Shown here piece after piece: positions 2,897 through 60,964 of a stretch of DNA of 64,000 nt. Each line of letters opens with the position of its first letter. The stretch's first letter is position 1. The stretch comes from Minisyncoccota bacterium (GTDB lineage Bacteria > Patescibacteriota > Minisyncoccia > Phycocordibacterales > JACRKE01): assembly GCA_041660505.1 (NCBI GenBank), contig JBAZWG010000001.1:307979-371978 (forward strand), written 5' to 3'. Under the pieces are notes generated by a model. The model was not told where the DNA came from and did no database searches. It saw only the letters and a list, made by a program, of their open reading frames with translations. The position numbers and the translations under genes are program-made.

Positions 2897-3220
2897 CTAT
2901 TCGACACTCACCTTCTCTCCCTCGGCTGTCAGATACGTCCGGGGATAGACTACTACCACCTCCTCCCCTTCGACCGGGTGGATTGCCCAGTCGCCGAGGC
3001 GACCCTCGGACTTGGCCTCGGTATCGGCGGGGAGAATCGTCACCTCTTCGATCTCCCAGAAGAGGGCAAGCAGGCAGAACACCACGCCTGCGACCAGCAG
3101 GCCGCAGGCGCCTGCCGCGATAGCCGGGTAGGCCATCGCGAAGAGGATCGCCCCGTATCCCGCGAGACACGAGATCTCGCAGAAGAGAGCAACTCGAAAA
3201 AAAGTCTTGAAAGAAATCAC
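2897..3220 (-). CDS. Small hypothetical membrane protein inside a GC-rich islet
   Basis: 107-aa ORF with two hydrophobic helices (AGYGAILFAMAYPAIAAGACGLLVAGVVFCLLALFW). Local GC is much higher than the flanks. The overlapping Arg-rich plus-strand ORFs look like GC artefacts. Confidence 0.3.
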   Translation of the reverse strand: MISFKTFFRVALFCEISCLAGYGAILFAMAYPAIAAGACGLLVAGVVFCLLALFWEIEEVTILPADTEAKSEGRLGDWAIHPVEGEEVVVVYPRTYLTAEGEKVSVE

Positions 3221-11763: not shown

Positions 11764-12564
11764 TTATTCCTTAAATCCGAGCTCGGCTATGGCTGGGTCC
11801 TCCCCCTCAACCAGTTCTTCAGCATCTTCGAACAAGAAGTCTCGGTGCTCTTTTTTATCTTCGAAGATCTCCCAAAATAACTCGGGCGTAAGTAGTGAAG
11901 GAAAGTTTTTCGCTCCCAAATAGTCAGCACAGCTCGACCAGCGATAATTCTTCAAAAAAGCCTCTATTCTTCTATTGTCCGAGGCGAGACCTCGGACATC
12001 GTGTATTGGCATGAGATCGACGGGATTAAGGTGTATATATCGCGCCAATACCGGAAGATACTGCTCATTGGTCACTTCCTTGCTCTTGAATAGTCCTTGG
12101 TAAAGTGCGCCTGTGCGCTTGTGCTTTTTATTAAAAAACATCGTATGCCCTGTCAGAACTTTTTGCATGAACTTACTCAATCCCGTATCGGTCTTCGGCG
12201 AAAGTAGGAGGTGGATATGGTTCGGCATCAGCGCATAGGCCACAATGTCTACGAGCTTCTCCCGTTTATCGGGCTTTTCTGTCTTGTCCGAGGTCTCGCC
12301 TCGGACATTAGAATTTGAGGGGGTTTTACCTGCGTCGCCCTTCAGTTTACCTTCGTTGCGGATCTTTTCTATCGGTGCGGTGTCGTTACAGACATACAAA
12401 TAATGAATAAACCGCCTGTAGTCGCGATTGTCCAGAAAAATATCGCGCTTCTCCGTCCCCCGATTATAGATATGATAATAAGCTCCCGCCTCAAATGGTA
12501 TTCGTTCCATATAGCCTAGTATACCACGGATAATGGCGGAGGTTGAACCTCCGCCATATAACAA
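11764..12564 (-). mobile_element. tnpA: IS200/IS605-type HuH tyrosine transposase (REP-associated RAYT-like), inserted between rpsS and rplB
   Basis: It contains an HuH motif (ALMPNHIHLLL) and a downstream tyrosine region (ARYIHLNP). The likely real start is MERIPFEAGAYYHIYNRG at 12510. Two copies of the GTCCGAGG-N5-CCTCGGAC hairpin lie in-frame inside it, at 11976-11999 and 12285-12307, encoding VRGLASD and VRGETSD. A ggcggaggttgaacctccgcc hairpin at 12533-12553 sits just upstream. Confidence 0.75.
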
Positions 12565-15531: not shown

Positions 15532-16722
15532 TTACGCGTTGATTTTCGTTACAACTCCTGCACCCACCGTCTTGCCACCTTCACGGATAGCGAAGCGTTG
15601 CTTCTCTTCCAAAGCTACCGGGGCCACGAGCTTGACTGTGATGTTGACCGTATCACCAGGCATAACCATCTCTGTGCCGGCCGGCAATGTCACGTCGCCC
15701 GTCACGTCCGTCGTGCGGACGTAGAACTGCGGCTTGTAACCATTGAAAAACGGCGTGTGACGGCCTCCTTCTTCTTTCTTCAAAACGTAAATTTCTGCGG
15801 TGAAATCGGTGTGAGGAGTGACTGAACCAGTCTTACATAGGACCTGACCGCGGGTAACATCTTCTTTCTTGGTACCGCGGAGGAGAATACCGGCATTGTC
15901 GCCAGCGATACCCTCGTCAAGCTGTTTGTTGAACATTTCGATACCGGTAACGGTCGTCTTGGAAGTCGGGTGAATGCCGACAATTTCTACTTCTTCACCT
16001 ACCTTAATCTTCCCGCGTTCTACACGGCCGGTGACCACAGTACCGCGGCCTTCAATAGAGAACACGTCTTCGATAGGCATGAGGAATGGCTTGGCGACAT
16101 CGCGAACAGGCTCAGGAATATAAGTATCCAAGGCGTCTGTGAGCTCAAGAACTTTCTTGACCCACTCATCATTTACATCCTTGCCTTCCAGCGCCTTAAG
16201 GCCGGAGCCGCGGATAATCGGACAATCCTTATCGAAGCCCTGCTTGGCCAATAGGTCGCGTACCTCCTCTTCAACGAGGTCGATAAGCTCTTTGTCGTCA
16301 ACCATGTCGCATTTGTTCAAGAAGACAAGTACCTTTGGCACACCAATCTGCTTGGCCAAAAGAATGTGCTCGCGAGTCTGTGGCATCACGCCATCGGTTG
16401 CGGCAACAACGAGAATAGCCCCATCCATCTGGGCGGCACCGGTGATCATGTTCTTGATATAGTCGGCGTGTCCCGGAGCGTCGATGTGCGCGTAGTGGCG
16501 TTTATCTGTGGCGTATTCGTTGTGAGAAAGGGCGATAGTAATACCGCGCGCCTTTTCTTCCGGCGCAGAGTCAATCTGGTCTACCGACTTCATGCGCACA
16601 GTCTTACCCGCCAAGTTGAGCGAGTGGAGGATGGCCGCGGTCAAAGTGGTCTTGCCGTGGTCAACGTGACCGATGGTGCCGACATTTACGTGCGGCTTGG
16701 AACGATCAAATGCTTCTGCCAT
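15532..16722 (-). CDS. tuf: Elongation factor Tu
   Basis: 396 aa. It has [18 protein letters not shown] and NKCD, the canonical GTPase motifs of EF-Tu. Confidence 0.98.
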
Positions 16723-20825: not shown

Positions 20826-21239
20826 TTACAGCGTTGTTTCGATAATTTCAACAAATTCTTCGATATCTCGGTATCGCTTCGTGAGCACATCGTACAGAAT
20901 GTCATAATTCACTTTTACATAATCATGCGCTATCACATTTCGAAATCCGACCATTTTCACCAATCTTTCCGATAGGTCATGCGGAATAACGTTATTCTCA
21001 TCGAGAACATAGAATGTTTCGCTCAAGGTGGTCGGCTTCCTTAATCTCTTGTAAGCAACTACCGCCTCGGCAAGATCGATCGTACTCTGGGCCATGAGAT
21101 ACAAATACCGCTCCACGGCTCCGCGTATCGTTTCATCAGCTACAATTTCTTCTTGTGATAACGTTCGATATCGGGCAATGGCTGTCAGATACTTACGCAC
21201 AAAGCCGATCATATTTTCAAGCACTATTTTATTCGACAT
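20826..21239 (-). CDS. HEPN-domain toxin (HepT/DUF86-like)
   Basis: 137 aa. It has the R-x4-HxY motif (GFRNVIAHDYV) and overlaps the upstream MNT gene by 11 nt. Confidence 0.75.
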   Translation of the reverse strand: MSNKIVLENMIGFVRKYLTAIARYRTLSQEEIVADETIRGAVERYLYLMAQSTIDLAEAVVAYKRLRKPTTLSETFYVLDENNVIPHDLSERLVKMVGFRNVIAHDYVKVNYDILYDVLTKRYRDIEEFVEIIETTL

Positions 21240-21633
21240 ATACTTTTTTTGTTAAGCCATGGCGCAATAGTATCTTCCGAAAATCAAAATATTCATTTAA
21301 AATCTTTGGTTCTGTAAGTACACGGAACGGTTCACGCTCAAAGATAATCTCTCCTTCGGCAATAGCCGCATACTTGAGTTCTGGAGAAATAGCATCGTTC
21401 AAGATCACAAGGTCAACGGCGTCGACTTTTAGAATGTAAGATAGGTCGGCTAAGAGCTTGAGTTTGAGGTCGCTCCGTTCTAGCGAAGACAGTTTATCGA
21501 ACTGGACGGCGAAGTCATAATCGCTCATCGGCCCCGCGTCGCCGCGCGCGCGCGAGCCGAAGAAGTACGCAACAACTACTTGCGGGCAGGCGCTAAAGAC
21601 CTCTGTTATCTTACGTTTGGTGGCAGTATCCAT
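21229..21633 (-). CDS. Minimal nucleotidyltransferase (MntA-like antitoxin)
   Basis: It has VVAYFFGSRARGDAGPMSDYDFAV (GS-x9-DxD). The start is placed at MDTATK at 21633. Confidence 0.75.
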   Translation of the reverse strand: MDTATKRKITEVFSACPQVVVAYFFGSRARGDAGPMSDYDFAVQFDKLSSLERSDLKLKLLADLSYILKVDAVDLVILNDAISPELKYAAIAEGEIIFEREPFRVLTEPKILNEYFDFRKILLRHGLTKKVYVE

Positions 21634-21704
21634 AGTGTTAGTCCTAAAACAGACAAGGCCATTGTACCTTGTCTGTTTTGTTATCACAAGTTTATACTAC
21701 TTTC

Positions 21705-24575
21705 TTACTTCACCATTGCCTTGAGCGCCCGCAGCGCAGAGATGATACTCGCGAGTTGCGAGGATGCGGTGGCCGTACTAGATGGCGTAGCGCCTGCCTT
21801 GTTAGACCAGCCAGTGAGTGCTGTATCATTTTGCCAAGCGGAGACCGCATAGTAATAGGTAGTGCCATTGGTCAGACCCGTATCGGTATAGCTTGTCGCT
21901 CCGCCTTCTACCCAGATTACTTGAATAGGGTCAGTCCCCCAGCGCATCGTTGACACCGTACTTCGGTATAGCGAGTATTTCGTTGCGTTAGGATAAGTGC
22001 TCCAAGAAAGCGAGATTCTACCATTACCAACAGTCGGCACGTTCACAACCGGCGTACCGGATATTGCAGAATCGGCGAACGGGGCGGGCGCAAGAACAGT
22101 AAGAGCCGATTGTGCCGAAGCAACCGTTGTGGCAAGTGTACCCATACAATAGCCGAAACAGGCATTGCTTGGCGTGTACAATACTGCGCGTAACGATGTT
22201 TGCCCGGCAGACAGATTACACAAAGTTTCCACATCTGCAAGACACTGTCCGTTCAATGCAGGCACTTGCCAAGTACGCGTTCCGCTCGTAGACAATCCGT
22301 CACCGATAGATTGATGAAATGGCTGATTGCCAACCAAGAGCCTTACAGCACTGTCTGCTGGCGCATTGGTTGATTGCCAAGAAATAGTTACTGTATCGCC
22401 CGGACAAACGGACGTACTACTTAAGTTCGTAATTGCAATAGACGGTGTCGCAGCGGTTGGGGCCGTCATGCTCGCGATATTACTTGCAGAGTTCTGTGTC
22501 GAACGGTCTGGCCCAAGCGGGAATAATTTATAATAATATGTGCCTGTCCAACCGGCCGCACGATGATCGGTGAATGATGTGGCGGAGGGAGACAAACCGA
22601 ATGCCAGCGCCTTGGTGGCAGTGTTGTTGAGCGGAACCGAAGAATCTGATGAAATATAAAGGTCGTAACCCTGTGCGCCTGAAGCTGGCGACCATGCTAC
22701 CAGAACACTCGTACCATCACTTTGCACAGATGCATGCAGGTCGGTAACATAAGCGGGACGAACGGGCGTACCGGACGTGACGTTAAAGGTTACGCTCCAT
22801 GTGCCCGAGTTCGTATAACTGATAGAATTTACTGTAATGTTTACCGGCGTGAATCCGGAAGCCACGCCGATATTCTTCGTCTGTCCTTCATAGAGATAGT
22901 CTGAATCCGCGAGTAATGTACCCGCACTGGTATAGAACTTAAACTTCACTTCAATCGGTCCATCACCGCCCATAGAATCCGCACTGTCTGCGTAGAGAAC
23001 CAGGCCATTATTGAGGAGGAGCGAGTCCCAGCTATGCAGTGTCTTCGTACCCTCACCGGTAAAGGTTGGGGTAACTGTAAATGTTTTACAGAAGTCGGTA
23101 GGATTAGTGCTTGAGAAGTCAATTCGAGCGCACACAGTATTAGGACCGGGAAGTGTCAAGCCAGAGGTGGCGGTACGTTGCGTAGTCGCACCGGGCGCAA
23201 TAGTCGGAATCGTGTCGGTTGATCCATTCAAGGTAAAGCTCGTCGGCACAGACGCAGTTGTCCCGTTATTCTTTATGGTTGCCGTCCAGGTAGCAGTCAC
23301 CCCGCCCAAAATCGGGTTGGCACTGGCCGTAATGTCAATGACACTAAGACCCGAGCTCGATGTGCCGCCGGTGATAGTAAACGGTGCATCGCTCTTATCT
23401 TCCACAGTGCCCGTGCCATCGCTCTTGTAGCCGATGATATAAATCTTGAAGATTGCACCGTTGCCCAAGTCACTCGCGGAGATAAACTGCGAAGGAACCC
23501 ACGAAAGGCTCCCTTGTCCTCCTATGCCTCCCACAGAGATATCGCGTCCAATCCAGGCGTAGGATGCATCATTGCGATAGAGCGCAATGGATACGCTGGA
23601 AAGATTGTTTGGTGCGTATGTAATCGTCTGATTGCCGGACAACGAGAAAGACTCACCGCCATTCGGAGAGATTACCTTAATACTTGCAGGCTGATTGTTG
23701 ATAACTACACCAGCAGGGCCATTAACATAGTCGCCCGCGGTCCCTTCTACTGGACTGGATGAATTGCACCACAACGAGACACTATAGGTATTTGGAGTTA
23801 TGTGTAAGGTTCGACTTCCGGAGGATCCGACATTGTCGTATTGCACATATTCAGCATTTTGATTGCTGTTTACACTCATTGAACAGTTAGCGGCATTGGA
23901 TGACCACGTCGCAGATACATCACGGCCGGCTGCAGGGACACTCGTGATCGCATTGTGCGAACCGTCAAGACTCAAAGTTGCGTGGATCGTCCCGGTTGAA
24001 ACCAATCTAAACGGATTATTACTGCGATCGGTTTCGCCGGTCACCGTATTCACAAGGCGGACATAATAGCCATCGCCGGGAGTTGGTAGGTTACCATAGG
24101 TATCCAAATCGCCAGACCAGTGGATTGAGGCCTTGCCTGACTCGATAATCTTGCCGAGGGTTATAAAATTGCCGTTCACTCGCTTCTCAAGATAAGCGTT
24201 TACTTGTGAAATTGCCGGGTTGATACCATTGTCCGGATCATACGGTGTCCATAATATGGTGTGGGTGTCACCGAGTTGCCACTGTTCACCGCCGTTTGGC
24301 ACGGTCAGCCTAAGCGACGAACTCTGTCTCCAACCTCCGCCTCCTTGCCCTTGTGCAATGAGCTGATTAACTAATACCTGGAGTGCCAGCGCCTGCTTTA
24401 ACAAATTAACTTGGGCCTGGAGTTCTGCAACGGTGCCACCGGGCATACTGTACACTTCATTTATTAATGCTTGTACCTGCGCTTGCAACTCTGCTGCCGT
24501 CGCCGCGTGAACTGCCGGCGCGCCGGACACGAAAACAAGACCTGCCAAAAGGAGGCCTCCTAAAAGTTTTTTCAT
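21705..24575 (-). CDS. Giant secreted surface protein (paralog of the 16868 gene), rich in Ig/FN3-like beta domains
   Basis: True start MKKLLGGLLLAGLVFVSGAPAVHA at 24575. The signal peptide and 5' UTR are near-identical to the 20722 gene. An N-terminal coiled-coil region is present (AELQAQVQALINEV...). It ends SSQLASIISALRALKAMVK. Confidence 0.8.
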   Translation of the reverse strand: MKKLLGGLLLAGLVFVSGAPAVHAATAAELQAQVQALINEVYSMPGGTVAELQAQVNLLKQALALQVLVNQLIAQGQGGGGWRQSSSLRLTVPNGGEQWQLGDTHTILWTPYDPDNGINPAISQVNAYLEKRVNGNFITLGKIIESGKASIHWSGDLDTYGNLPTPGDGYYVRLVNTVTGETDRSNNPFRLVSTGTIHATLSLDGSHNAITSVPAAGRDVSATWSSNAANCSMSVNSNQNAEYVQYDNVGSSGSRTLHITPNTYSVSLWCNSSSPVEGTAGDYVNGPAGVVINNQPASIKVISPNGGESFSLSGNQTITYAPNNLSSVSIALYRNDASYAWIGRDISVGGIGGQGSLSWVPSQFISASDLGNGAIFKIYIIGYKSDGTGTVEDKSDAPFTITGGTSSSGLSVIDITASANPILGGVTATWTATIKNNGTTASVPTSFTLNGSTDTIPTIAPGATTQRTATSGLTLPGPNTVCARIDFSSTNPTDFCKTFTVTPTFTGEGTKTLHSWDSLLLNNGLVLYADSADSMGGDGPIEVKFKFYTSAGTLLADSDYLYEGQTKNIGVASGFTPVNITVNSISYTNSGTWSVTFNVTSGTPVRPAYVTDLHASVQSDGTSVLVAWSPASGAQGYDLYISSDSSVPLNNTATKALAFGLSPSATSFTDHRAAGWTGTYYYKLFPLGPDRSTQNSASNIASMTAPTAATPSIAITNLSSTSVCPGDTVTISWQSTNAPADSAVRLLVGNQPFHQSIGDGLSTSGTRTWQVPALNGQCLADVETLCNLSAGQTSLRAVLYTPSNACFGYCMGTLATTVASAQSALTVLAPAPFADSAISGTPVVNVPTVGNGRISLSWSTYPNATKYSLYRSTVSTMRWGTDPIQVIWVEGGATSYTDTGLTNGTTYYYAVSAWQNDTALTGWSNKAGATPSSTATASSQLASIISALRALKAMVK

Positions 24576-24621
24576 GATATGTTGTTGCCCTGAAGGGTAA
24601 TTAATTGACAATGTGCTTATA

Positions 24622-24649
24622 ATATCACCCCCCCCCCGGCGAGTCACAA
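24622..24649 (-). promoter_or_regulatory. Candidate promoter with a G10 homopolymer in the -35/-10 spacer (phase-variation candidate)
   Basis: The minus strand reads ttgtga-ctcgccgggggggggg-tgatattataag, about 50 nt upstream of the MKKLL start. The C10 run lies at plus-strand coordinates 24628-24637. Confidence 0.5.
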
Positions 24650-24784: not shown

Positions 24785-25174
24785 TTATAGTGTTTGTAAA
24801 TACTGACGCCTTAATGCCAGCAACTTCTTTGATTCCCAATAAAGATCATACACGTACACGGCAAAACGGTCGAACCACCCGGGCTCGCGTTCATAGAGCA
24901 ATATCCCATCCTCTATAGCTCCTCGTTGATATATCGGCGACATTTGGGCTAGTTGTGCAACTTCGACATCTATAGCCATCTTTTGAGAGATTGCCGCCGC
25001 AATCTGACCGACTTCAATTGTGCTAAGTTCAGATTTTACAGCAATACCGATATCAATATCACTTAATCTATTCGCATCCCCTCTCGCTTGCGAACCGAAG
25101 AGAATCGCCGCCTGTAAATCATACTGCGGGGCTATTTCGGCGATAGTTTTCCGTAATAATTCCGTATCTATCAT
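24785..25174 (-). CDS. Minimal nucleotidyltransferase (MntA-like), with no intact HEPN partner
   Basis: It has AAILFGSQARGDANRLSDIDIGIAV. Downstream, 24660-24784 holds only a short remnant ORF. Confidence 0.7.
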   Translation of the reverse strand: MIDTELLRKTIAEIAPQYDLQAAILFGSQARGDANRLSDIDIGIAVKSELSTIEVGQIAAAISQKMAIDVEVAQLAQMSPIYQRGAIEDGILLYEREPGWFDRFAVYVYDLYWESKKLLALRRQYLQTL

Positions 25175-25219: not shown

Positions 25220-26494
25220 CTAGTAGCTATAATACGCCGATGTCGTAAACGTATTGATCGGGCTGTAGACCGGTGTGCCGGTGCTAAGTGATGCGACTAG
25301 GCGGTATTGATACACAGTACCCGGCTGGAGATATGTGACCGGCGCGCTCACAGGTATTATGCCGGCCTGGAAGGTATTGTTGGTCTTGTTCGTGCGCATG
25401 ACGGTGTTTGCATTGGTCACATCGGTGCCATATTCGAACCATGTCCAGACGGTGTCACCGCTTGTGTTGGTGAGATTGACGGTGCCGTTAACAGTCGCGC
25501 TGTTTGGCGTGATGTTTGTTGCTTGGGTTGTCGCTGTAGAGCTAATCGCGCTCGTCACGACATTATTGTAGCCGTAGTTATATCCATACGCGTTGGTCGG
25601 TGTAGTTACAACAACCGGTGCCGACACCACAGAAACTTGCGAACAGTCGCTCGTAACACACGCGTAAACTACGTAGGTATGCGTACTGTTGGGAACCAAG
25701 TTACTAACCTGCAACGTTTTATTGGATGTAACTGATATCACACTAGACTGATTGTTCGGCAAGACCTCTACAACCTTGAACGAATAGATACCCGTCGTGT
25801 TATACCAAGTCAGCACAACGGAATTCGGCATAAGGGATGACGCCGTAAGGCTAAATGGTGCGCCAGCCGTTACCACTGACACGCCGTTATATCCGGTCGT
25901 CCCATTATCTACTTGGAAATAGAGCGTATTACTGCCGGTGCCGTCTGGCTTACGCAAGCGAACACCGTAGTTCCCCGGTGTGACCGGTGATGCGCAGGCG
26001 TTCTGATCTATCGAAGGATTGGAGCAAGGATATTTGATCGTCGTTGGGAAGATGAAGCCGAAGCCCGGGTCGACTACGTCGACAGTAACATAAGACTGCC
26101 CCGGCGGGATAATTTCTATCCTGTCATTCACGGTGATGTTACTGCCCTGGAAGTTGACTCGGACGCCGGCCATACCTGATGACGGCGAGAGCATTGAGAG
26201 ATACGGCGCCGGCAAAGAAATGACCGGCGGTGTCATCGGCGGGTAATTCGTGGTGCCAGACTGGGAGTTGGTATAGCTCGCGTTATTGACTTGAAGTTGT
26301 AACTGGAGCGCCTGTTGGAGGAGCTGAATCTTCTGGGTCAATTGTTCATTGGTGTCGCTAGGTAGTGACTGCACAAGATTCAAAATATACTGCACCTGCG
26401 CCTTCTGGCTGTCCATTGTAGGGTTATACATCTGGGCCGAGGCCGTAAGAGGCAAGAGCATCGCGCACAAAATATAAAGGGTGTATTTTTTCAT
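25220..26494 (-). CDS. Secreted protein with an N-terminal coiled coil and an IPT/TIG-like domain
   Basis: It has the signal peptide MKKYTLYILCAMLLPLTASA, then QVQYILNLVQSLPSDTNEQLTQKIQLLQQALQLQLQ and LSPSSGMAGVRVNFQGSNITVNDRIEI. Confidence 0.7.
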   Translation of the reverse strand: MKKYTLYILCAMLLPLTASAQMYNPTMDSQKAQVQYILNLVQSLPSDTNEQLTQKIQLLQQALQLQLQVNNASYTNSQSGTTNYPPMTPPVISLPAPYLSMLSPSSGMAGVRVNFQGSNITVNDRIEIIPPGQSYVTVDVVDPGFGFIFPTTIKYPCSNPSIDQNACASPVTPGNYGVRLRKPDGTGSNTLYFQVDNGTTGYNGVSVVTAGAPFSLTASSLMPNSVVLTWYNTTGIYSFKVVEVLPNNQSSVISVTSNKTLQVSNLVPNSTHTYVVYACVTSDCSQVSVVSAPVVVTTPTNAYGYNYGYNNVVTSAISSTATTQATNITPNSATVNGTVNLTNTSGDTVWTWFEYGTDVTNANTVMRTNKTNNTFQAGIIPVSAPVTYLQPGTVYQYRLVASLSTGTPVYSPINTFTTSAYYSY

Positions 26495-26573
26495 ACACAT
26501 AGTTTAGCGCTTTTGAGTACGCTCTGCAACCAGTTTCCCCTCTCCTTCGGGGAGGGGCGCAGGGGGAGGGGCT

Positions 26574-28721
26574 TTACTTCCTCGCTTCGATAATCTGGGC
26601 TTCGATATTCTTGGAGACAATCTGATATTCGCAGAATTCCATGGTGAAGCTGGCGCGGCCCTCGGTCATACTGCGGAGCTGAGTGACGTAGCCGAACATT
26701 TCCGATAGTGGCACTTTGGCATTGACCACTTTGTTCTGTCCGCGATTTTCCATACCTTCTATTTGGGCGCGGCGGGATGACAGGTTACCGGTCACGTCAC
26801 CCATAAACTTCTCGGGCGTCACCACCTCCACCTTCATTATCGGCTCGAGGATAACCGGGCCGGCGCGTTTGGCCGCTTCTTGGAAGGCGATGGAGCCCGC
26901 CATTTTGAACGCCATTTCGGACGAGTCCACGTCGTGAGATGAACCGAAGGTGAGCTCGACGGATACATCCACAACCGGGAAGCCGGCAAGAATACCGCGG
27001 CCAAGAGCTTCGCGCACGCCTTTCTCAACGGCCGGGATAAATTCATTCGGAATGACACCGCCCTTGATACTGTTGATGAACTCGAAGTGGTCCTCGCGCG
27101 TCGTATTCTTCGAGACTTTTTTATCAGGGTCAACAGCCTCAAGCGGTTTGACGGTAAGCACGCAGTGGCCGTACTGACCGCGACCGCCGGACTGCTTGAT
27201 GTGCTTGCCTTCCGCCTCGGCGCTCTTCGTGATGGTCTCCTTGTACGCCACCTGCGGTTTGCCGACGTTCGCCTCCACATTAAATTCGCGCTTCATGCGG
27301 TCAATGATAATTTCGAGGTGGAGCTCACCCATGCCGGAGATAATCGTCTCCATTGTCTCTTCATCGGTCGAGATTCTAAATGTTGGGTCTTCGTCCGAGA
27401 GGCGCTTCATGGCCAAGCCCATCTTCTCTTGGTCGGCCTTGGTCTTGGGCTCAATGCGCATAGACACGACCGACTCCGGGATCTTGATAGACTCGAGCAC
27501 GATAGGATGTGCCTCATCACAGAGCGTGTGGCCAGTCTTGGCTTCTTTAAGCCCTACCGCCGCCGCGATTTCACCGGCGAAGACTTTCTTAACCTCTTCG
27601 CGTTCATTCGCATGCATGCGGAGGATACGGCCAAGGCGTTCGCGCGAACCGGTACTGGCGTTATAAACATAAGAGCCAGACTCGATTGTGCCGGAGTAGA
27701 CGCGGAAGAAGGTGAGCTGGCCAACAAACGGATCTGATTGTAATTTGAAGGCAAGAGCCGAGAAAGGCTGGTCGTCAGAAGCCGGGCGAGTAATCTCCTC
27801 ACCCGTGTTCGGGTCAGTCCCCTTCGTGACCGGGATGTCTAGCGGCGATGGCAAGTAGTCAACGACAGCATCGAGCACAAGTTGGACGCCTTTGTTCTTA
27901 AGAGCCGAACCGCAGAGCACAGGGACTATCTTGTTGTCGATTACCGCTTTGCGGAGAATTTTCTTGAGGCGCGCGATATCGATCTCTTTACCTTCCAGAT
28001 ATTCATTCATCGCGGTGTCATCTTCGGCCACAATCTTCTCGATGAGTTCGTGATGGAATTTCTTGGCTGTCTCGAGCAAGTTTTCCGGAATTTCCGCCTC
28101 TTTTACCACACTGCCTTTGTCTCCTTCGAAGTAGAACGCCTTCATTTGGAGCAGGTCAATAACGCCTTCATGCTTATCCTCTTCGCCAATTGGGATTTGC
28201 ATTCTTACTGCGTCCTTCGTAAGCCGGTCTAATATTGTGGCGTAAGAATGTTCGAAGTTACCTCCCGTGCGATCGAGTTTGTTAATGAAGCAGATGCGCG
28301 GCACGTTGCCCTCGTCGGCATAACGCCAGTTGGTCTCGGATTGGGGCTCTACGCCGGCCACGCCGTCAAATACTACGACAGCGCCGTCCAAGACGCGCAA
28401 AGAACGACGCACTTCGATAGTGAAGTCAATGTGCCCCGGGGTGTCAATAATATTGAAGCGGAGCTTTTTACTGACGTCCTTCTTATCGGCAACGTAAGTC
28501 GGTGTCCAGAAGGCCGTGGTTGCAGCCGAGGTAATAGTAATACCGCGCTCGCGCTCTTGCTCCATCCAGTCCATGACGGTGTCGCCCTCGTGTACCTCGC
28601 CGATCTTGTGTGATACGCCGGTGTAGAAAAGGATGCGCTCCGAAGTGGTCGTCTTGCCCGCATCAATGTGGGCGATGACGCCGAAGTTACGTACTCTGTC
28701 CAAAGGATAATCTCGATTCAT
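26574..28721 (-). CDS. fusA: Elongation factor G
   Basis: 715 aa. It has [10 protein letters not shown] and DTPGHIDF, the canonical sequences of EF-G. Confidence 0.97.
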
Positions 28722-34776: not shown

Positions 34777-35658
34777 TTATTTCTTTTGCGCGATAGTATT
34801 ACCGTCGGAGACGAAGGTTATTGTACCCTGCTCATCCGTGCGTAAGTACGGGACGCCGAATTTCGCGAGCTTATCCAACGTTTCTTTATTCGGATGACCG
34901 TATTTATTGTCTTTACCGACAGAAATAATAGCGAATGAGGGTTTAACATATCCAAGCAGTGCTTCGCCGGTTGCGGTCTTAGAACCGTGATGACCCAATT
35001 TTAAAATATCGGCCTTAAGATTATCGCCGTCTAGCGATGCGAGATAATTTTCGACCGCTTGCGGTTCGTCGGCGGTCATAAGCACGCGAGTTTTGCCGTA
35101 AATCAATTCTGACACAATGGATTTATCATTAGTGTCACCGCCTTCTATGTATCTGTCGGGGAATAATATTCGCAACGTTGCTCCCCCGCCGAGGTCAACT
35201 ACTTGCCCGCGTTTGGCGATAACGACCGGTATCTCCTCTGTCTTGGCAATTCGTTCAACGAGTTGTTCTTGTTTATTAAGAGAATTGCCGGGCGACACCA
35301 TCAAGGCGCCGACATCATCGCGCGACAGCACGCTTGGCATACCGCCGGAATGGTCTAAGTCGGGGTGCGTCTCCATCACGAAGTCGATACGGCGATCATA
35401 GAATGGCAATTCATTGCCAAGCCTGCGCAAGACGATACTACCCGGGCCGGCATCGATGAGCGCATGATTCCCCACCGGTGACTCAATATATATAGAGTCG
35501 CCTTGGCCGACGTCTAGGAACGAGATAGTCAGTTTGCCTTGTCTTAACTCGTGGGATAATACATAAGCAAAGAAAAATACCGATACGCAAAGCCCGAGAA
35601 GAAAAGCTAGTTTAGCGTAGTGCTTTTTTGTGAAGAATTTCAGGTAATTTCCTTTCAT
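34777..35658 (-). CDS. comEC: ComEC/Rec2 C-terminal metallo-beta-lactamase domain (3' part of a split comEC)
   Basis: It has ...ISFLDVGQGDSIYIE...HPDLDHSGG...LKLGHHGSKT. It overlaps the upstream ORF by 47 nt in another frame. Confidence 0.75.
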   Translation of the reverse strand: MKGNYLKFFTKKHYAKLAFLLGLCVSVFFFAYVLSHELRQGKLTISFLDVGQGDSIYIESPVGNHALIDAGPGSIVLRRLGNELPFYDRRIDFVMETHPDLDHSGGMPSVLSRDDVGALMVSPGNSLNKQEQLVERIAKTEEIPVVIAKRGQVVDLGGGATLRILFPDRYIEGGDTNDKSIVSELIYGKTRVLMTADEPQAVENYLASLDGDNLKADILKLGHHGSKTATGEALLGYVKPSFAIISVGKDNKYGHPNKETLDKLAKFGVPYLRTDEQGTITFVSDGNTIAQKK

Positions 35659-37072
35659 ACAATATCAAGCATAGCATGGCCAGATACCAGATAAGCATTA
35701 ATGCCGTAGGCAATGAAGCGATTTGCAAATACGCGAACGGCAGATGAGCGGCGAGCGACACAACTCGTAAAACGTACAAAAGCAAAATGTGAGTCGGCAC
35801 GAGCGCAATGAATGCGACCGGATATGCAATGAAGCCGAGCACGATCATTATTGCGCCCAAGAGCATTAATGTCGGGACGACAGGCAGGATAAGAATATTG
35901 GCGAGAAGCGAGATGAGAGACACTATCCCCGTCTTATATATAATGAGTGGCATTATCATAGCCTCGGCCGCAATTGTGCCCGTAAGAATTTCTTTGACTC
36001 CGTAGAGCGCTGGTGCGCGTACGAGCAAACGACCAACAACCGGCGAGAGCCAGATAATGCCGGCGGCAGCGAGGAAAGAGAGTTGGAATGAGAAATCATA
36101 AAGAGGCGTAAGCGGATTCCAAAGAGACATTAGCAGTGCCGTGACCACAAGTGCCGTGCCGGCATCATATGTCCTGCCTTCTTTTTGCGCGAGCAAAAGT
36201 ATCACAGACATCACTGCCGCACGCACAGCCGAGGCAGAAAGCCCGGTCATAATGACGAACAAAACAATCATTACCCCGCTTAGGCCGAGGCCGATAGCCG
36301 TGGGTATACCGAAATATAAAATGACTGCTCCGATAGCATTCGCAATTATCGTAATGTTGTAACCCGATATGGCGACCACATGCGAGACGCCTGTCTGATT
36401 GAATTCGGCAAGTACCTCTTTGCCTATCGTCGTACGCGCACCGATCAAGATGCCGGCGACGAGCGACGACTCCGGCTCCGGCAGAAGTTCTGATATTTTA
36501 TTTAGGAATGTATGCTTGATTCCGTAAAGAAAAGAAAATGCAGAATTGCCTGCACCGCTCTTTATTTTCGATACGCTCGCATATTTAAACTCATACTGAA
36601 TACCGCGGAGTTTTAAGTATTCCTTCCAATAATCCGTCACGTTGGTCGCCTCAACTGCAGTTAAATTACCTTTTATGGAGATCAGATCACCGTAAGTAAA
36701 TTCCTGCGGGCCGTTTAATGTCACCACGGCCTCTTTATTTTTAAACATAGAGTCGTCAGTAAACTTAAGCGTTAGCCGCATACCGGTGTCTTGCTCTACC
36801 GGTTCGTCATTAACTACTGCCTGTATATTCACACTTTGCGCCGGTAGAAGTGCGGGTTGATTCACCTGCCAGAATTCATAACGAAAGATACCGAGACTTG
36901 TGGCGATTAGAAATACTGCGGTAATAAGCACTGCTCGTTCGCGCGATACGAACGGTAATATGAGCGCAAGCAGAAGCAAGAAAATCCCCACAGACCAGCC
37001 GAGCGCGAGAAAATAGGCAACAAAAATACCTGCGACGAATCCGACGCAGGCAGTGTAAACGTAAACACGCAT
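35612..37072 (-). CDS. comEC: ComEC/Rec2 N-terminal membrane channel domain (5' part of a split comEC)
   Basis: 486 aa and polytopic (DUF4131 plus a competence-like domain). An A6 tract at 35624-35629 lies 10 nt before its stop. Confidence 0.75.
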   Translation of the reverse strand: MRVYVYTACVGFVAGIFVAYFLALGWSVGIFLLLLALILPFVSRERAVLITAVFLIATSLGIFRYEFWQVNQPALLPAQSVNIQAVVNDEPVEQDTGMRLTLKFTDDSMFKNKEAVVTLNGPQEFTYGDLISIKGNLTAVEATNVTDYWKEYLKLRGIQYEFKYASVSKIKSGAGNSAFSFLYGIKHTFLNKISELLPEPESSLVAGILIGARTTIGKEVLAEFNQTGVSHVVAISGYNITIIANAIGAVILYFGIPTAIGLGLSGVMIVLFVIMTGLSASAVRAAVMSVILLLAQKEGRTYDAGTALVVTALLMSLWNPLTPLYDFSFQLSFLAAAGIIWLSPVVGRLLVRAPALYGVKEILTGTIAAEAMIMPLIIYKTGIVSLISLLANILILPVVPTLMLLGAIMIVLGFIAYPVAFIALVPTHILLLYVLRVVSLAAHLPFAYLQIASLPTALMLIWYLAMLCLILYERKLPEILHKKALR

Positions 37073-37999: not shown

Positions 38000-39682
38000 T
38001 TATTCCACAAGACCGCCTTGTGCATAGGCCCAATCTACAATTCTAAGCCGTAACTCGTGCGGGTATTTGAAGGTGGATTTTTCTAGCGTTACTTGTAGAT
38101 CAAGCTTCGTATCTAGTTTGATATTTTTGAACTCGTCATAGGTGAAGAACTTAATAGCGCCTATACTACTGCGTGACTTTTTGAGAATTAATTCTGTATG
38201 TATCCCTTCTTTGCCGAAGAATCTTACTTCGCTCACCTCGACATTCTTTAAACTGAATACCGGCTTCTCGTTACCAACACCGAACGGCGCGAATTGATCT
38301 ACCTCTCTGTACATTTCCCAGGTTATGTCATTAACGTCAATCTCTATATATTCTGATTTTTCTATTTGAGCCTTATTATAGAGAGTTGAACTCTCTAAGT
38401 TAAGCTTCTTGTAAGCAGATATCAGTGCCGGTGCAAACAATTCTATTTTATCTTCGTAGATTGAGAAGCCGCCGGCGAGTTCGTGCCCGCCGAAGTCTAA
38501 GAATATTTCATTGGAAATTTCTTTCGTTTCTGTCATCAGCTCTACTATATTTACCGAACCGTCGGAACGGCACGAGCCTTTCAGATGTGTTGAAGTGTGT
38601 TTGCCCCAGACGAACGCTGGCTTCTCATATTTCTCTGCGAGCATATTGGCGGCGAGGCCTACTATCCCCGGCTTCCAGTCTCTATGGCCTATCACTATAA
38701 CGGGTAAATCGGTGTGTAAATGCATGAGCGCCTCGGCTTCTTGGATGATAATTTGCACTTCACTCTTCCTGTCTGCATTGTGATCCAGTAATTTTTGCAC
38801 GAGCTCCGCCGCCTCGCCGCCATCTTCGGTCGTGAGCAATTTGAAGGCATCATAGGGGTCGCCCATCCTACTCGCCGCGTTTATGTGCGGGCCGATGGTG
38901 AAGCCGACGTCATCTTCTGTTAGATTTTCCGGCCTAACATTTTTCTTTTTTAACAATTGCAAAATACCGACCCTAGGAGTTTTACGTAATACTTTGAGCC
39001 CGTAATAAGCCAAGACTCTATTCTCGCCGGTCAGAGAAACCATATCGGCAATAGTTGCAAGACCGGCCAGATCAAGCAACCATTTCTCCCAGCCTTTCGG
39101 TAGCTCGAACTTCCCCTCTTTCATCAAAGCCTGCACTAACTTAAACGCCGTGCCCGCACCGCAAATATTTTTATTTTTATACTTGTCACCTTTCTTTTGT
39201 GCGTTTATTATTGCGTAAGCTTTCGGTAGTTTATCCTGAACAATATGGTGATCTGTAATTATTACATCAATGCCAAATTTACTCGCCTCGTCAACCGCTT
39301 CTGTATCTGTGATACCGCAATCTACCGTGATAATTAATGAAGCGTGTTGTTTCTGGAGTTTGCGCACCGCTTCTACTGTCATGCCGTACCCCTCTGTATA
39401 TCTATGCGGAATATAGGCGCTGATTTTCTTGTACCCGATTTTTTTGAAAAATTCGTAAAGTAATGCCGTGCCCGGAATGCCATCGCAATCATAGTCGCCG
39501 AAGATGACTATCTGTTCTTGATTCGAAATTGCATGGAGAATTATTGCGACCGCTTTCTTCATCCCCGAAAACAGGAATGGATCGTGCAAGTCGCGCACAT
39601 AGTCCGGATGCAAGAATATTTCTGCCGCCTTTTTTGTTGTTATGCCGCGTGCTTTGAGCAGCTGTTGCGTAAGGCTGGCCAT
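38000..39682 (-). CDS. recJ: Single-stranded-DNA-specific exonuclease RecJ (DHH/DHHA1)
   Basis: 560 aa. It has the DHH-family motifs ...IFGDYDCDGI... and ITDHH. Confidence 0.85.
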   Translation of the reverse strand: MASLTQQLLKARGITTKKAAEIFLHPDYVRDLHDPFLFSGMKKAVAIILHAISNQEQIVIFGDYDCDGIPGTALLYEFFKKIGYKKISAYIPHRYTEGYGMTVEAVRKLQKQHASLIITVDCGITDTEAVDEASKFGIDVIITDHHIVQDKLPKAYAIINAQKKGDKYKNKNICGAGTAFKLVQALMKEGKFELPKGWEKWLLDLAGLATIADMVSLTGENRVLAYYGLKVLRKTPRVGILQLLKKKNVRPENLTEDDVGFTIGPHINAASRMGDPYDAFKLLTTEDGGEAAELVQKLLDHNADRKSEVQIIIQEAEALMHLHTDLPVIVIGHRDWKPGIVGLAANMLAEKYEKPAFVWGKHTSTHLKGSCRSDGSVNIVELMTETKEISNEIFLDFGGHELAGGFSIYEDKIELFAPALISAYKKLNLESSTLYNKAQIEKSEYIEIDVNDITWEMYREVDQFAPFGVGNEKPVFSLKNVEVSEVRFFGKEGIHTELILKKSRSSIGAIKFFTYDEFKNIKLDTKLDLQVTLEKSTFKYPHELRLRIVDWAYAQGGLVE

Positions 39683-52160: not shown

Positions 52161-53972
52161 TTACTCATTCGCTACACGCAAGACTTCCTCTATGCTCGTT
52201 ACGCCTTGTGCGGCTTTAAATATGCCATCTTCGAACATCGTAAGCATGCCGGCCGCACGGGCAGTGCGCTCCAAGTCGGCATCGCTCGCGTTCTTGATGA
52301 TTAATTCTTTAATCGCCGGTGTCATCTTCATAATCTCGTGAATACCGACACGACTCTTATAGCCATCCGGGCAGTCTGGCGATGGCTTGGGGCGACAGAA
52401 TTGGATTTTTGAAAAGTCATCGGTCGGGCCGACTATTTTCTCTTCTCGTAATTTTTGCAGTACGACATCGAGATTAATATGCTTCTTTAGTGACTCTATC
52501 TCGCCCGCCGTCAGCGTGTATTTCTCGTTGACGTGGTGCAAACGCCGCACCAAGCGCTGAGCGATGACCACGTTAAGGGTTGAGACGAGCAAGAACGGCT
52601 CCACCCCCATATCAATAAGCCTCGGCACCGCACCGGCAGCCGAGTTGGTGTGCAAAGTAGAAAGCACAAGATGGCCGGTCAACGCCGCATTGATGGCAAG
52701 AGATGCTGTCTCTTTGTCGCGAATCTCCCCCACCATTATAATATTCGGATCTTGGCGCATCAGGGCACGCAAACCGGCACCGAAGGTCAGGCCGATGTCG
52801 GGCTTAACCTGCGTCTGATTAACACGACCCATCTGATATTCGATCGGATCCTCTATTGTAGAAATATTTACGTCCGGTGTATTTAGCGTGTCTATCATCG
52901 TATAGAGCGTCGTCGTCTTGCCCGAGCCGGTCGGGCCGGTGGCCAGGATTATCCCCGTCGTTTGTCTCATTGCGTCGTGAATAGCTTCGAGCCCGGCGCC
53001 ATGGAAGCCGAGCACCTCGAGAGTGAATCCCTTTGCTGTATCGGGAAGCAAGCGCATCACCACCTTCTCGCCGAAGTATGTCGGCAAGAGCGAAACGCGG
53101 AATGACACCTTCTGCCCAGTCTCGGCATTGTCGATTTTAAATCGTCCGTCTTGAGGCAAGCGCTTTTCATCTAGGCGCAGGTGCGAAAGCACTTTGATGC
53201 GCGCCACGATGCCGGAAGCGGCGGCGATTGGCAATATCATTGCGTCATGCAAGATACCGTCGATGCGATAGCGGATTACGAGCTGGCCCTCGAAAGGTTC
53301 GATATGAATATCCGACGCCTGCTGGAGAATGGCGTGCTCGAGCAAAGCGTCCACAATGCGCACCACCGGCACATCTTCTGCCAGCTTAGCCAGATCAGGA
53401 TCAACTTCAGGGCCAGAGGTGAGTCCTCTGACATTTTCAGCGGCCGAGGTGAGTCCTCCGGTTTCAGCGGAGGTCTCTCCTCGGCCACCTATCTTCCTCG
53501 CCTCTGAACTTATAATACTGCCAAACTCGTCGCGCAAGCTTTTCTGATATTGGATAAGACCTCCTTTTATAGATTCTGTGTCTGTGAGCCGCGGTAAAAT
53601 GCGCACACCCGTGCGCTTGGCGATGAACTCGATAGCCTCCACGTCTTGCGGATCAAGCATCGCTACCTCGATATTGTTGTCTTTATCTCTCGCGTAAGCG
53701 AGCACATTGTGTTTGCGCGCAATCGGTTCCGGGATTATTGCAAGCAGTTTCGGGTCTATCTTCTGACCCTTTAAAGATATGAATGGAATGCCGAAGAGGT
53801 ACGCCTGCACACGGCGGAATTCGTCTTCGGTAATCTTACCTTCAGAAACTAAAACGTCGCCGACCGTTCTATCCTTCTCCTTTGCAAGTTTATCTGCCGC
53901 GTCGAAGTCGGCACCAGAGATCAAGCCGGCATCGAGCACGAATTGCTTGAGCTGTTTGGTGTCGAGTTGCAT
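52161..53972 (-). CDS. pilB: Type IV pilus assembly ATPase PilB (GspE family), with an in-frame repeat-derived insertion in the linker
   Basis: It has an N-terminal GSPII_E_N domain and Walker A GPTGSGKTTTL. The start is placed at MQLDTKQL (53972), because the track start 53993 lies in a family-1 repeat. Nucleotides 53413-53486 encode RGETSAETGGLTSAAENVRGLTSG. Confidence 0.85.
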   Translation of the reverse strand: MQLDTKQLKQFVLDAGLISGADFDAADKLAKEKDRTVGDVLVSEGKITEDEFRRVQAYLFGIPFISLKGQKIDPKLLAIIPEPIARKHNVLAYARDKDNNIEVAMLDPQDVEAIEFIAKRTGVRILPRLTDTESIKGGLIQYQKSLRDEFGSIISSEARKIGGRGETSAETGGLTSAAENVRGLTSGPEVDPDLAKLAEDVPVVRIVDALLEHAILQQASDIHIEPFEGQLVIRYRIDGILHDAMILPIAAASGIVARIKVLSHLRLDEKRLPQDGRFKIDNAETGQKVSFRVSLLPTYFGEKVVMRLLPDTAKGFTLEVLGFHGAGLEAIHDAMRQTTGIILATGPTGSGKTTTLYTMIDTLNTPDVNISTIEDPIEYQMGRVNQTQVKPDIGLTFGAGLRALMRQDPNIIMVGEIRDKETASLAINAALTGHLVLSTLHTNSAAGAVPRLIDMGVEPFLLVSTLNVVIAQRLVRRLHHVNEKYTLTAGEIESLKKHINLDVVLQKLREEKIVGPTDDFSKIQFCRPKPSPDCPDGYKSRVGIHEIMKMTPAIKELIIKNASDADLERTARAAGMLTMFEDGIFKAAQGVTSIEEVLRVANE

Positions 53973-53983
53973 GAGATCGACAC

Positions 53984-54024
53984 CGAGGTTCAACCTTTTT
54001 GATGCCTAAGGTTGAACCTCGGTG
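53984..54024. repeat. Family-1 paired palindrome, extended variant (ccgaggttcaacc...ggttgaacctcgg)
   Basis: accgaggttcaacctttttgatgcctaaggttgaacctcggtgg. Confidence 0.8.
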
Positions 54025-60027: not shown

Positions 60028-60897
60028 ATGAAAGCGCCGGATGAAACCTTACAAAAATTAAGAGAATATTTTGAAAAGCGTGATGACGTTGTTTTAGCTT
60101 ACCTCTTCGGTTCGCAGGCAAAGGGGACAGCGACACCTCATCGGTCGGACTATGACATCGCCGTTTATTTCGCGACCCCGTCCGGGACATTCGAATATGA
60201 AGCTGAAACTGGTGAATACCAGACCGAGAGTGCGATCTGGAGCGACTTGGAATCAATTACACATGAAGATATTGATCTTGTGGTTCTTAATCGGGCGCCT
60301 GCCTCTGTGGTCTTTTCCGCTATAAACGGGACCGAGGTTCTTGCAGAAAAAGATCGCGACCTTTTTATGAAGTTACTTCTCAAGAGCAGTGCCGATGCTG
60401 AAGACTACGCCGAGATGGTGCGCGATTACGCCGAGATAGCCGCAAGGTCCAGATCGCTAAGCCCGCAAGACATTCTCCGTTTAGAAAAAATCATGACATT
60501 CATGGGCAACGAAATGATCTTGCTCGAACAATATGGCGCAATCAGCCAGATCGAATTTCAACAGGATCCGCGGGCTAGGCGAGTGCTTGAACGCTCCGTC
60601 GAAATGCTCGTCAACGCAGGGCTTGATATTGCCAAAATATTGCTCGCTTCCGGCCGAAGAAACATTCCGGACAAGTATGCCGAAGTAATGAAGAATCTTG
60701 GATATCTGGATAATTTTGACAATGACACCGCCTTGTGGCTGTCACGTTCCGCAACGCTCCGCAACATTGTCGCGCATGAATATCTCGATCTTGAATATAC
60801 AAAGATAACCACCTTCCTGACGGGGAAAGAAAAGTATTTTACTTACTTAATGCAATACGCGAAAGAGGCGGTCCGAAAACAGAGAGAAGAAAAGTAG
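60028..60897 (+). CDS. Fused nucleotidyltransferase (MNT)-HEPN protein
   Basis: The N-terminus has LAYLFGSQAKGTATPHRSDYDIAV (NTase). The C-terminus has LRNIVAHEYLDLEY (the HEPN R-x4-HxY motif). Confidence 0.75.
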   Translation: MKAPDETLQKLREYFEKRDDVVLAYLFGSQAKGTATPHRSDYDIAVYFATPSGTFEYEAETGEYQTESAIWSDLESITHEDIDLVVLNRAPASVVFSAINGTEVLAEKDRDLFMKLLLKSSADAEDYAEMVRDYAEIAARSRSLSPQDILRLEKIMTFMGNEMILLEQYGAISQIEFQQDPRARRVLERSVEMLVNAGLDIAKILLASGRRNIPDKYAEVMKNLGYLDNFDNDTALWLSRSATLRNIVAHEYLDLEYTKITTFLTGKEKYFTYLMQYAKEAVRKQREEK

Positions 60898-60908
60898 CGC
60901 GTAGCCAT

Positions 60909-60936
60909 TTGCAAATTTGGCGGGGGGGGGTAGAAT
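60909..60936 (+). promoter_or_regulatory. Candidate sigma70-like promoter with a G9 homopolymer in the spacer (phase-variation candidate)
   Basis: TTGCAA-atttggcggggggggg-TAGAAT has a 16-nt spacer, about 30 nt upstream of the MKKYLAG start. Confidence 0.5.
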
Positions 60937-60964
60937 GGATGTATTAATGCGTAATAAATTTTCT

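Follow-up and report, generated by a model that had tools for sequence, protein, structure and literature searches.

Do the two long runs of guanine that precede two putative surface-protein genes of an uncultured bacterium act as promoter spacers whose length changes by slippage, or do they have some other origin or role? The source organism is an ultra-small, groundwater-type member of Candidatus Paceibacterota (Candidate Phyla Radiation, CPR) represented by a metagenome-assembled genome, and the stretch of DNA analysed here, referred to as the window, covers 64 kb of a contig of 719,008 bp. An earlier sequence-only reading had placed a G10 run on the minus strand at 24628-24637 and a G9 run at 60922-60930, and both are present as described, the former as C10 on the plus strand and the latter as G9 on the plus strand. 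It had also held that such runs are absent elsewhere, which a count of all homopolymers bears out, the next-longest G/C run in the 64 kb being 6. Against two tracts observed, the number of G/C runs of at least 9 expected in 64 kb is 0.19 under a first-order Markov model and 0.29 with independent bases, in agreement with the claim that the pair is unlikely to be due to chance. The description of the window as AT-rich does not hold at a measured G+C content of 48.6%. Both tracts lie less than 55 nt upstream of an ATG, and at both loci it is the coding strand that reads G.

Position of the tracts within predicted promoters

The elements predicted around the two tracts, together with the genes that follow them, are listed below.

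Locus 1
24642-24649, minus strand: candidate -35, either TTGTGA at 24649-24644 (19-nt spacer) or GTGACT at 24647-24642 (17-nt spacer); the TTG is conserved in the alignment
24628-24637, minus strand: G10 homopolymer (C10 on the plus strand) in the predicted promoter spacer of the 956-aa gene; the same G10 is found in Logan contig L001
24619-24627, minus strand: TGa plus TATTAT, a candidate extended -10 from a promoter scan; the layout Gn-TGn-TATnAT recurs in L020
21705-24575, minus strand: gene of a 956-aa predicted secreted protein (NCBI WC764_01790) with signal peptide, helical N-terminal module and Ig-like/fn3/CARDB-like domains
Locus 2
60909-60914, plus strand: candidate -35 hexamer TTGCAA (alternative TTTGCA, 60908-60913), identical in both L005 cassettes
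60922-60930, plus strand: G9 homopolymer filling the 3' part of a 16-nt spacer; the same G9 is found in Logan contig L002
60931-60936, plus strand: candidate -10 hexamer TAGAAT, directly abutting the tract; predicted transcription start near 60943
60965-62695, plus strand: gene of a 576-aa predicted secreted protein (NCBI WC764_01960) with signal peptide, helical hairpin and three predicted beta-sandwich domains

On the minus strand, locus 1 reads cccc-TTGTGA-ctcgcc-GGGGGGGGGG-tga-TATTAT-aagcac, with 52 nt from the tract to the ATG (24575), TATTAT at 24624-24619 and a predicted transcription start near 24612. The TTGTGA hexamer is as the sequence-only reading had quoted it, at 24649-24644. The spacer, which had been put at about 20 nt, measures 19 nt from this hexamer, so that a loss of 2 G, not of about 3, would give a 17-nt spacer. 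The promoter scan also reads the locus as GTGACT-17-TATTAT preceded by TG at the present G10. As this combination of a 17-nt spacer with an extended -10 is readable at the assembled length, locus 1 need not be OFF; its state is ambiguous, the predicted spacer being 19 or 17 nt according to the choice of -35. A consensus promoter stronger than this one (TTTACA-16-TATTAT, 10/12 positions) lies 130 nt further upstream at 24800-24773.

Locus 2 reads cca-TTTGCAA-atttggc-GGGGGGGGG-TAGAAT-gg on the plus strand, with 34 nt between tract and ATG (60965). TTGCAA, the 16-nt spacer and TAGAAT are all as originally quoted, and an alternative reading pairs TTTGCA with a 17-nt spacer. The locus 2 promoter is predicted to be ON at the assembled length, while the assignment of opposite ON and OFF states to the two loci is not secure, given the second reading of locus 1.

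As the sequence-only reading had noticed, the tracts also produce spurious GGG extensions of open reading frames, since long ORFs cross both of them as Gly codons: 21705-24647 at locus 1 (980 aa, GTG start) and 60917-62695 at locus 2 (592 aa, TTG start). The NCBI annotation takes the MKK starts and arrives at 956 and 576 aa, the latter correcting the 577 aa given earlier, and the Logan gene call for locus 2 begins at an in-frame ATG at 60935, 4 nt past the G9 and within the predicted promoter. For annotation, this means that such tracts create over-long ORFs with poly-Gly N-termini and that one caller's start codon falls inside the promoter.

The start regions of about 20 window genes give some context for these assignments. 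In several genes the ATG is preceded at 6-10 nt by a TAnnnT box, which makes a sigma-70-like -10 plausible in this organism and suggests leaderless mRNAs or mRNAs with very short leaders. No Shine-Dalgarno sequence is visible in these regions, be it before EF-Tu, EF-G, ribosomal-protein or other genes, so that a ribosome-binding role of the G run is unlikely. A more specific form of this idea, in which the tract mimics a Shine-Dalgarno sequence for the ATG at 60935, was rejected: the other cassettes do not conserve this ATG, and Shine-Dalgarno sequences are missing from the genome. Searches against Rfam returned no match at locus 1 or locus 2.

A rare N-terminal module and its gene neighbourhood

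The two proteins had been called paralogous, and this holds for residues 1-75, which are 49% identical, but not beyond them. At the DNA level the loci match over no more than 56 nt, within the part that codes for the signal peptide. The shared residues comprise a signal peptide ending in AxA (VHA/AT and AQA/ST, with no Cys in either) and a helical region rich in LQ.QV..L. Beyond these residues, the 956- and 576-aa proteins give sub-threshold matches to fn3, CARDB, Kre9_KNH and PEGA, and homologues carry PF10342 and PF01471. An AlphaFold model of the 576-aa protein displays three all-beta domains after a helical hairpin; at a pLDDT of 52 it can be read for secondary structure only and is too poor for a fold search. 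The genes downstream of the tracts thus look like genes for secreted, surface-type products, in line with the original description of them as surface-protein genes, a location to which the AxA signal peptides and the predicted beta-sandwich domains point.

A third, more distant member of the family adjoins locus 1 and is specified as follows.

25220-26500, minus strand: gene of a 426-aa protein with an fn3 match; N-terminal module 37-39% identical; no G tract upstream

The large protein's residues 85-400 have common homologues among Parcubacteria-type proteins, in many architectures. By contrast, the N-terminal module is rare, with 18 cluster representatives among 1.84 billion in an exhaustive profile search. 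The N-terminal alignment profile found no match at E <= 0.01 in a set of 5.8 billion proteins, and a protein-pattern scan of GTDB genomes for the module revealed no relative. Where it occurs, the module is joined to many architectures, from 196 to 1601 aa. A C-terminal helix motif, SSQLAS..S.L.A....., is common to the 956-aa protein (21705-21770), P0062 and P0065, so that in some family members both ends are conserved and the middles are variable.

Locus 1 belongs to an island between fusA/EF-G (26574-28721) and tuf/EF-Tu (15532-16722), all on the minus strand and within a run of ribosomal-protein genes. The island holds the 426-aa family member, a nucleotidyltransferase (NTase) gene, the 956-aa gene, an MNT/HepT pair and a gene for a 1345-aa dockerin protein. 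The P0062 gene in L020 occupies the same position as locus 1, with EF-Tu and S10 after it. Most family genes come directly after toxin-antitoxin genes, among them MNT/HepT (as separate genes or fused), BrnT/CopG and PIN types.

Toxin-antitoxin genes, window: 20826-21687, 24785-25174, 60028-60897
Toxin-antitoxin genes, relatives: L005:466-1119, L005:2257-2839, L020:786-1435, L021:586-1461

The NTases of the window are 33-43% identical to each other and hence not recent duplicates. For this reason, and because the DNA likeness amounts to 56 nt, a recent duplication of toxin-antitoxin gene plus promoter was rejected as the origin of the two loci.

Several further features of the window were recorded. 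Between the S3 and L2 ribosomal-protein genes lies an ORF (11764-12564, minus strand) whose product has a Y1 transposase domain of the IS200-like type. Between the EF-G stop and the 426-aa family gene there is an inverted repeat, CCCCTCCCC...GAGGGG, C-rich and then G-rich (26535-26578, minus strand), which may form a terminator-like hairpin, though it has no T run. Genes at 35612-37072, 38000-39682 and 52161-53993 code for a ComEC-like competence protein, RecJ and a PilB/T2SSE ATPase, a set of DNA-uptake and pilus genes that CPR genomes usually have. Pfam gave no match for several large ORFs, of 1242, 1102, 677 and about 600 aa.

Upstream cassettes among relatives

The comparison covered the upstream DNA of 11 distinct genes carrying the N-terminal module. 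In six of them a run of G8-G11 occupies the same promoter position, 34-52 nt before the ATG and with G on the coding strand.

win1 (window locus 1): -35 TTGTGA; 6 bases before the tract; G10; TGa-TATTAT; spacer 19 nt (17 from GTGACT)
win2 (window locus 2): -35 TTGCAA; 7 bases before the tract; G9; TAGAAT; spacer 16 nt
P0060 (L005:1165-1175): -35 TTGCAA; 7 bases before the tract; G11; TACAAT; spacer 18 nt
P0056 (L005:2942-2952): TTGCAA; 7 bases before the tract; G11; ACAATT, read as G10 plus GACAAT; spacer 17 nt
P0054 (L006:268-276): -35 TTGCCT; 8 bases before the tract; G9; TATACT; spacer 17 nt
P0062 (L020:1456-1463): -35 TTGCCT; 4 bases before the tract; G8; TGc-TATCAT; spacer 15 nt

The remaining five (P0055, the L012 gene, P0005, P0064 and the third member in the window) lack a tract, which is therefore not essential to the cassette. 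In silico, all six cassettes, which come from at least three sources, have TTGnnn on one side of the tract and TAnnnT on the other. An alignment of five cassettes has the TTG of the -35, the tract and positions A2 and T6 of the -10 (TAnnnT) as invariant, while other positions diverge. The earlier statement that the tracts occupy homologous promoter positions is thereby extended from two genes to six related cassettes with the same layout. This conservation of TTGnnn and TAnnnT supports the prediction that the tracts sit inside a sigma-70-type promoter. Moreover, the six tracts account for every G/C run of at least 7 in 97.8 kb of non-redundant clade DNA.

Tract lengths in the six homologous promoters differ (8, 9, 9, 10, 11 and 11). 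The assembled spacers are 16, 17, 17, 18, 15 and 19/17 nt, four cassettes falling at 16-18 nt, and by a crude sigma-70 consensus score the observed length is within 1 nt of the best in five of the six. With most spacers at 16-18 nt, most cassettes are predicted to be active, and these near-optimal lengths fit promoters that are mostly ON as well as a fixed promoter.

Material for a comparison at single loci is limited to duplicate assemblies, since exact-protein look-ups with both surface proteins and both upstream toxin-antitoxin genes led to one other assembly only, Logan SRR18595301. In three duplicate pairs, which probably stem from the same samples, tract length is identical (window/L001 10/10, window/L002 9/9, L006/L007 9/9). 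The classic phase-variation geometry proposed by the sequence-only reading is accordingly sustained in part: the tracts do lie between conserved promoter hexamers and do differ in length among cassettes, but at no single locus did these three pairs, of probably shared origin, differ in tract length.

Outside the family, the DNA pattern TTTGCAANTTTNGC+G7 has four matches in GTDB genomes, none of them to a gene with the N-terminal module. Three of these continue as G10, G11 and G9 followed by TA.. and have the same geometry of TTGCAA, 7 nt, Gn and -10 (L016:4141-4161, L018:7349-7369 and L019:4509-4529); they belong to MAGs of Oscillibacter, Saccharibacteria and Muribaculaceae. The Oscillibacter tract precedes a protein that, judged by eye, resembles a small helix-turn-helix regulator.

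Within the family, a small CCC(C)-loop-GGG(G) hairpin is conserved in the predicted 5' leaders of win1 (about 24589-24598, minus strand) and of both L005 genes (L005:~1216-1226 and ~2989-3000), and so is the motif CATTGTCAA(T/A)TAA. A conserved 5'-UTR hairpin was considered and rejected, as it would consist of three invariant G-C pairs only, with no covariation.

Proposed slippage and its alternatives, and comparison with known systems

On balance, we lean towards the explanation that the tracts work as slippage-tuned promoter spacers, that is, towards phase variation by tract length. Each tract would be the variable part of a sigma-70-type promoter spacer, and the promoter would be one component, beside a short leader, a signal peptide and a helical stalk, of a conserved 5' cassette common to a small, clade-specific family of Paceibacterota surface proteins. 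Slipped-strand mispairing at replication would add or remove a base in the G8-G11 runs, and each slip would shift the distance between -35 and -10 by 1 bp, with a stepwise change in promoter strength that could be graded or ON/OFF. As a result, cells of one population may display differing sets of family surface proteins. We infer that the hexamers work as a promoter, that slippage of the tracts is frequent in this organism and that expression depends on their length. Read-through transcription is possible as well, because both genes follow co-directional genes, and it could add to, blunt or mask promoter switching.

Alternatively, the G run could be a static, inherited promoter element (a spacer, a regulator site or a structural element) held by selection and with no meaningful switching, the length differences between genes reflecting slow evolutionary drift. 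This seems unlikely to us, yet it deserves to be taken seriously. Equal lengths in all three duplicate assemblies are what it would predict, as are a tract that is always G on the coding strand and the G11 shared by both L005 paralogues, whose near-identical flanks fit descent. The four spacers at 16-18 nt and the five lengths within 1 nt of the predicted best also suit it, since purifying selection on an ordinary fixed promoter is expected to give 16-18-nt spacers too. However, a plain spacer needs no homopolymer, and six cassettes keep one despite differing spacer flanks and lengths, two of them having spacers, of 15 and 19 nt, that fall beyond the active range. The lack of any other G/C run of at least 7 in the 97.8 kb argues that such runs are otherwise purged. 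In bacteria where it has been measured, moreover, G/C runs of at least 8 are intrinsically unstable (PMC7864442, PMC3639595), which is difficult to reconcile with a static element.

A different possibility is that the tract is transcribed, from an upstream promoter or by read-through from the toxin-antitoxin or ribosomal genes, and that the G run serves in the mRNA leader, for instance as a target for a C/U-rich small RNA or as a translation signal. Such an arrangement has a precedent in a variable G-repeat of an mRNA leader (PMC8295292), and it gains from the short gaps that separate both genes from co-directional genes upstream, from the stronger consensus promoter at locus 1 and from the Logan choice of the ATG just past the G9. 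It is nonetheless improbable, as the hexamers that flank the tract are conserved and nothing upstream of them is, the ATG after the tract has no counterpart in the other cassettes, and both the missing Shine-Dalgarno sequences and the blank Rfam results speak against it. Nor was a complementary C-rich small-RNA candidate seen in the window, C/G runs of 6 being left aside. The tracts could also stem from an artefact of sequencing or assembly, such as the poly-G of two-colour Illumina chemistry or homopolymer error in long reads; poly-G is a known artefact class, and the exact length of long homopolymers is error-prone. Still, the tracts are internal to the 719-kb contig, a separate, Illumina-type Logan assembly matches them base for base, and they recur at the homologous promoter position in relatives from JGI, ENA and NCBI metagenomes, so that this explanation is hardly credible.

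If slippage does tune these promoters, we advance tentatively, and would not yet count on, the broader proposal that a narrow Paceibacterota clade within the CPR owns a portable cassette of poly-G-spacer promoter, signal peptide and helical stalk, which it places on many Ig-like arrays, often behind toxin-antitoxin genes and even within the fusA-tuf run, and which would give ultra-small, probably episymbiotic cells a combinatorially phase-variable coat. To our knowledge, nearly all cases of phase variation driven by homopolymers come from host-adapted pathogens, and a full-text literature search found no description of it in Patescibacteria/CPR. The mechanism itself is classic; its occurrence in the CPR and the portable cassette would be new, if real. 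In that case the Candidate Phyla Radiation would have its first described contingency-locus system, one that belongs to a non-pathogen. The genomes of CPR bacteria are minimal, and the cells are believed to live on the surface of hosts, to which they attach; stochastic switching of adhesin-like proteins would bear on host choice, phage evasion and population diversity with few regulators.

Known systems share parts of this design. The vlp genes of Mycoplasma hyorhinis form a multigene family in a tiny genome, in which a conserved 5' block (a promoter with a poly-A homopolymer plus a signal peptide) is combined with divergent surface-exposed C-terminal parts, allowing combinatorial display (for references see PMC11868660). 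A conserved 5' block of promoter and signal peptide joined to divergent C-terminal regions is found here too. The Vlp proteins, however, are lipoproteins with a lipobox Cys and their tract is poly-A, whereas the proteins described here have AxA signal peptides without Cys, a helical stalk and poly-G; lacking the lipobox Cys, they are an analogue of Vlp in design and not members of that family. In Helicobacter pylori, a variable G-repeat upstream of the tlpB coding region lies in the transcribed leader and pairs with the small RNA RepG (PMC8295292). The common element is a G homopolymer upstream of the coding region, but here the tract stands between conserved predicted promoter hexamers and no small RNA is known.

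In Treponema pallidum, putative surface proteins, namely tp0126 and the tpr paralogues, have promoter poly-G tracts of 7-12; that of tp0126 lies between -35 and -10, where the optimum distance is 17 nt, and tpr tracts of 7-11 vary within an isolate (PMC7864442). In that species, too, the tracts led to ORF calls that were too long and concealed the true signal peptide (PMC7864442), so that paralogous putative surface proteins, promoter poly-G and over-long ORFs are all features in common with the genes analysed here. Differences are seen in tprE/G/J/L, where the tract is upstream of the start site in a different geometry and a CRP-like regulator is involved, and in the kind of variation, which has been demonstrated within isolates of T. 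pallidum and is seen here only between genes. A further counterpart is porA of Neisseria meningitidis, in which poly-G of about 9-11 is part of the spacer between -35 and -10 in the sigma-70 promoter of a major surface protein and its length sets expression in graded steps that are not strictly ON/OFF (PMC3639595). The bacterium studied here is an environmental member of the CPR rather than a host-adapted pathogen, its system is known from sequence alone, the tract abuts the -10 directly and several paralogues share the design. What it would have in common with porA is the central element, poly-G as part of the spacer in a sigma-70-type promoter, predicted in the present case, of a surface protein.
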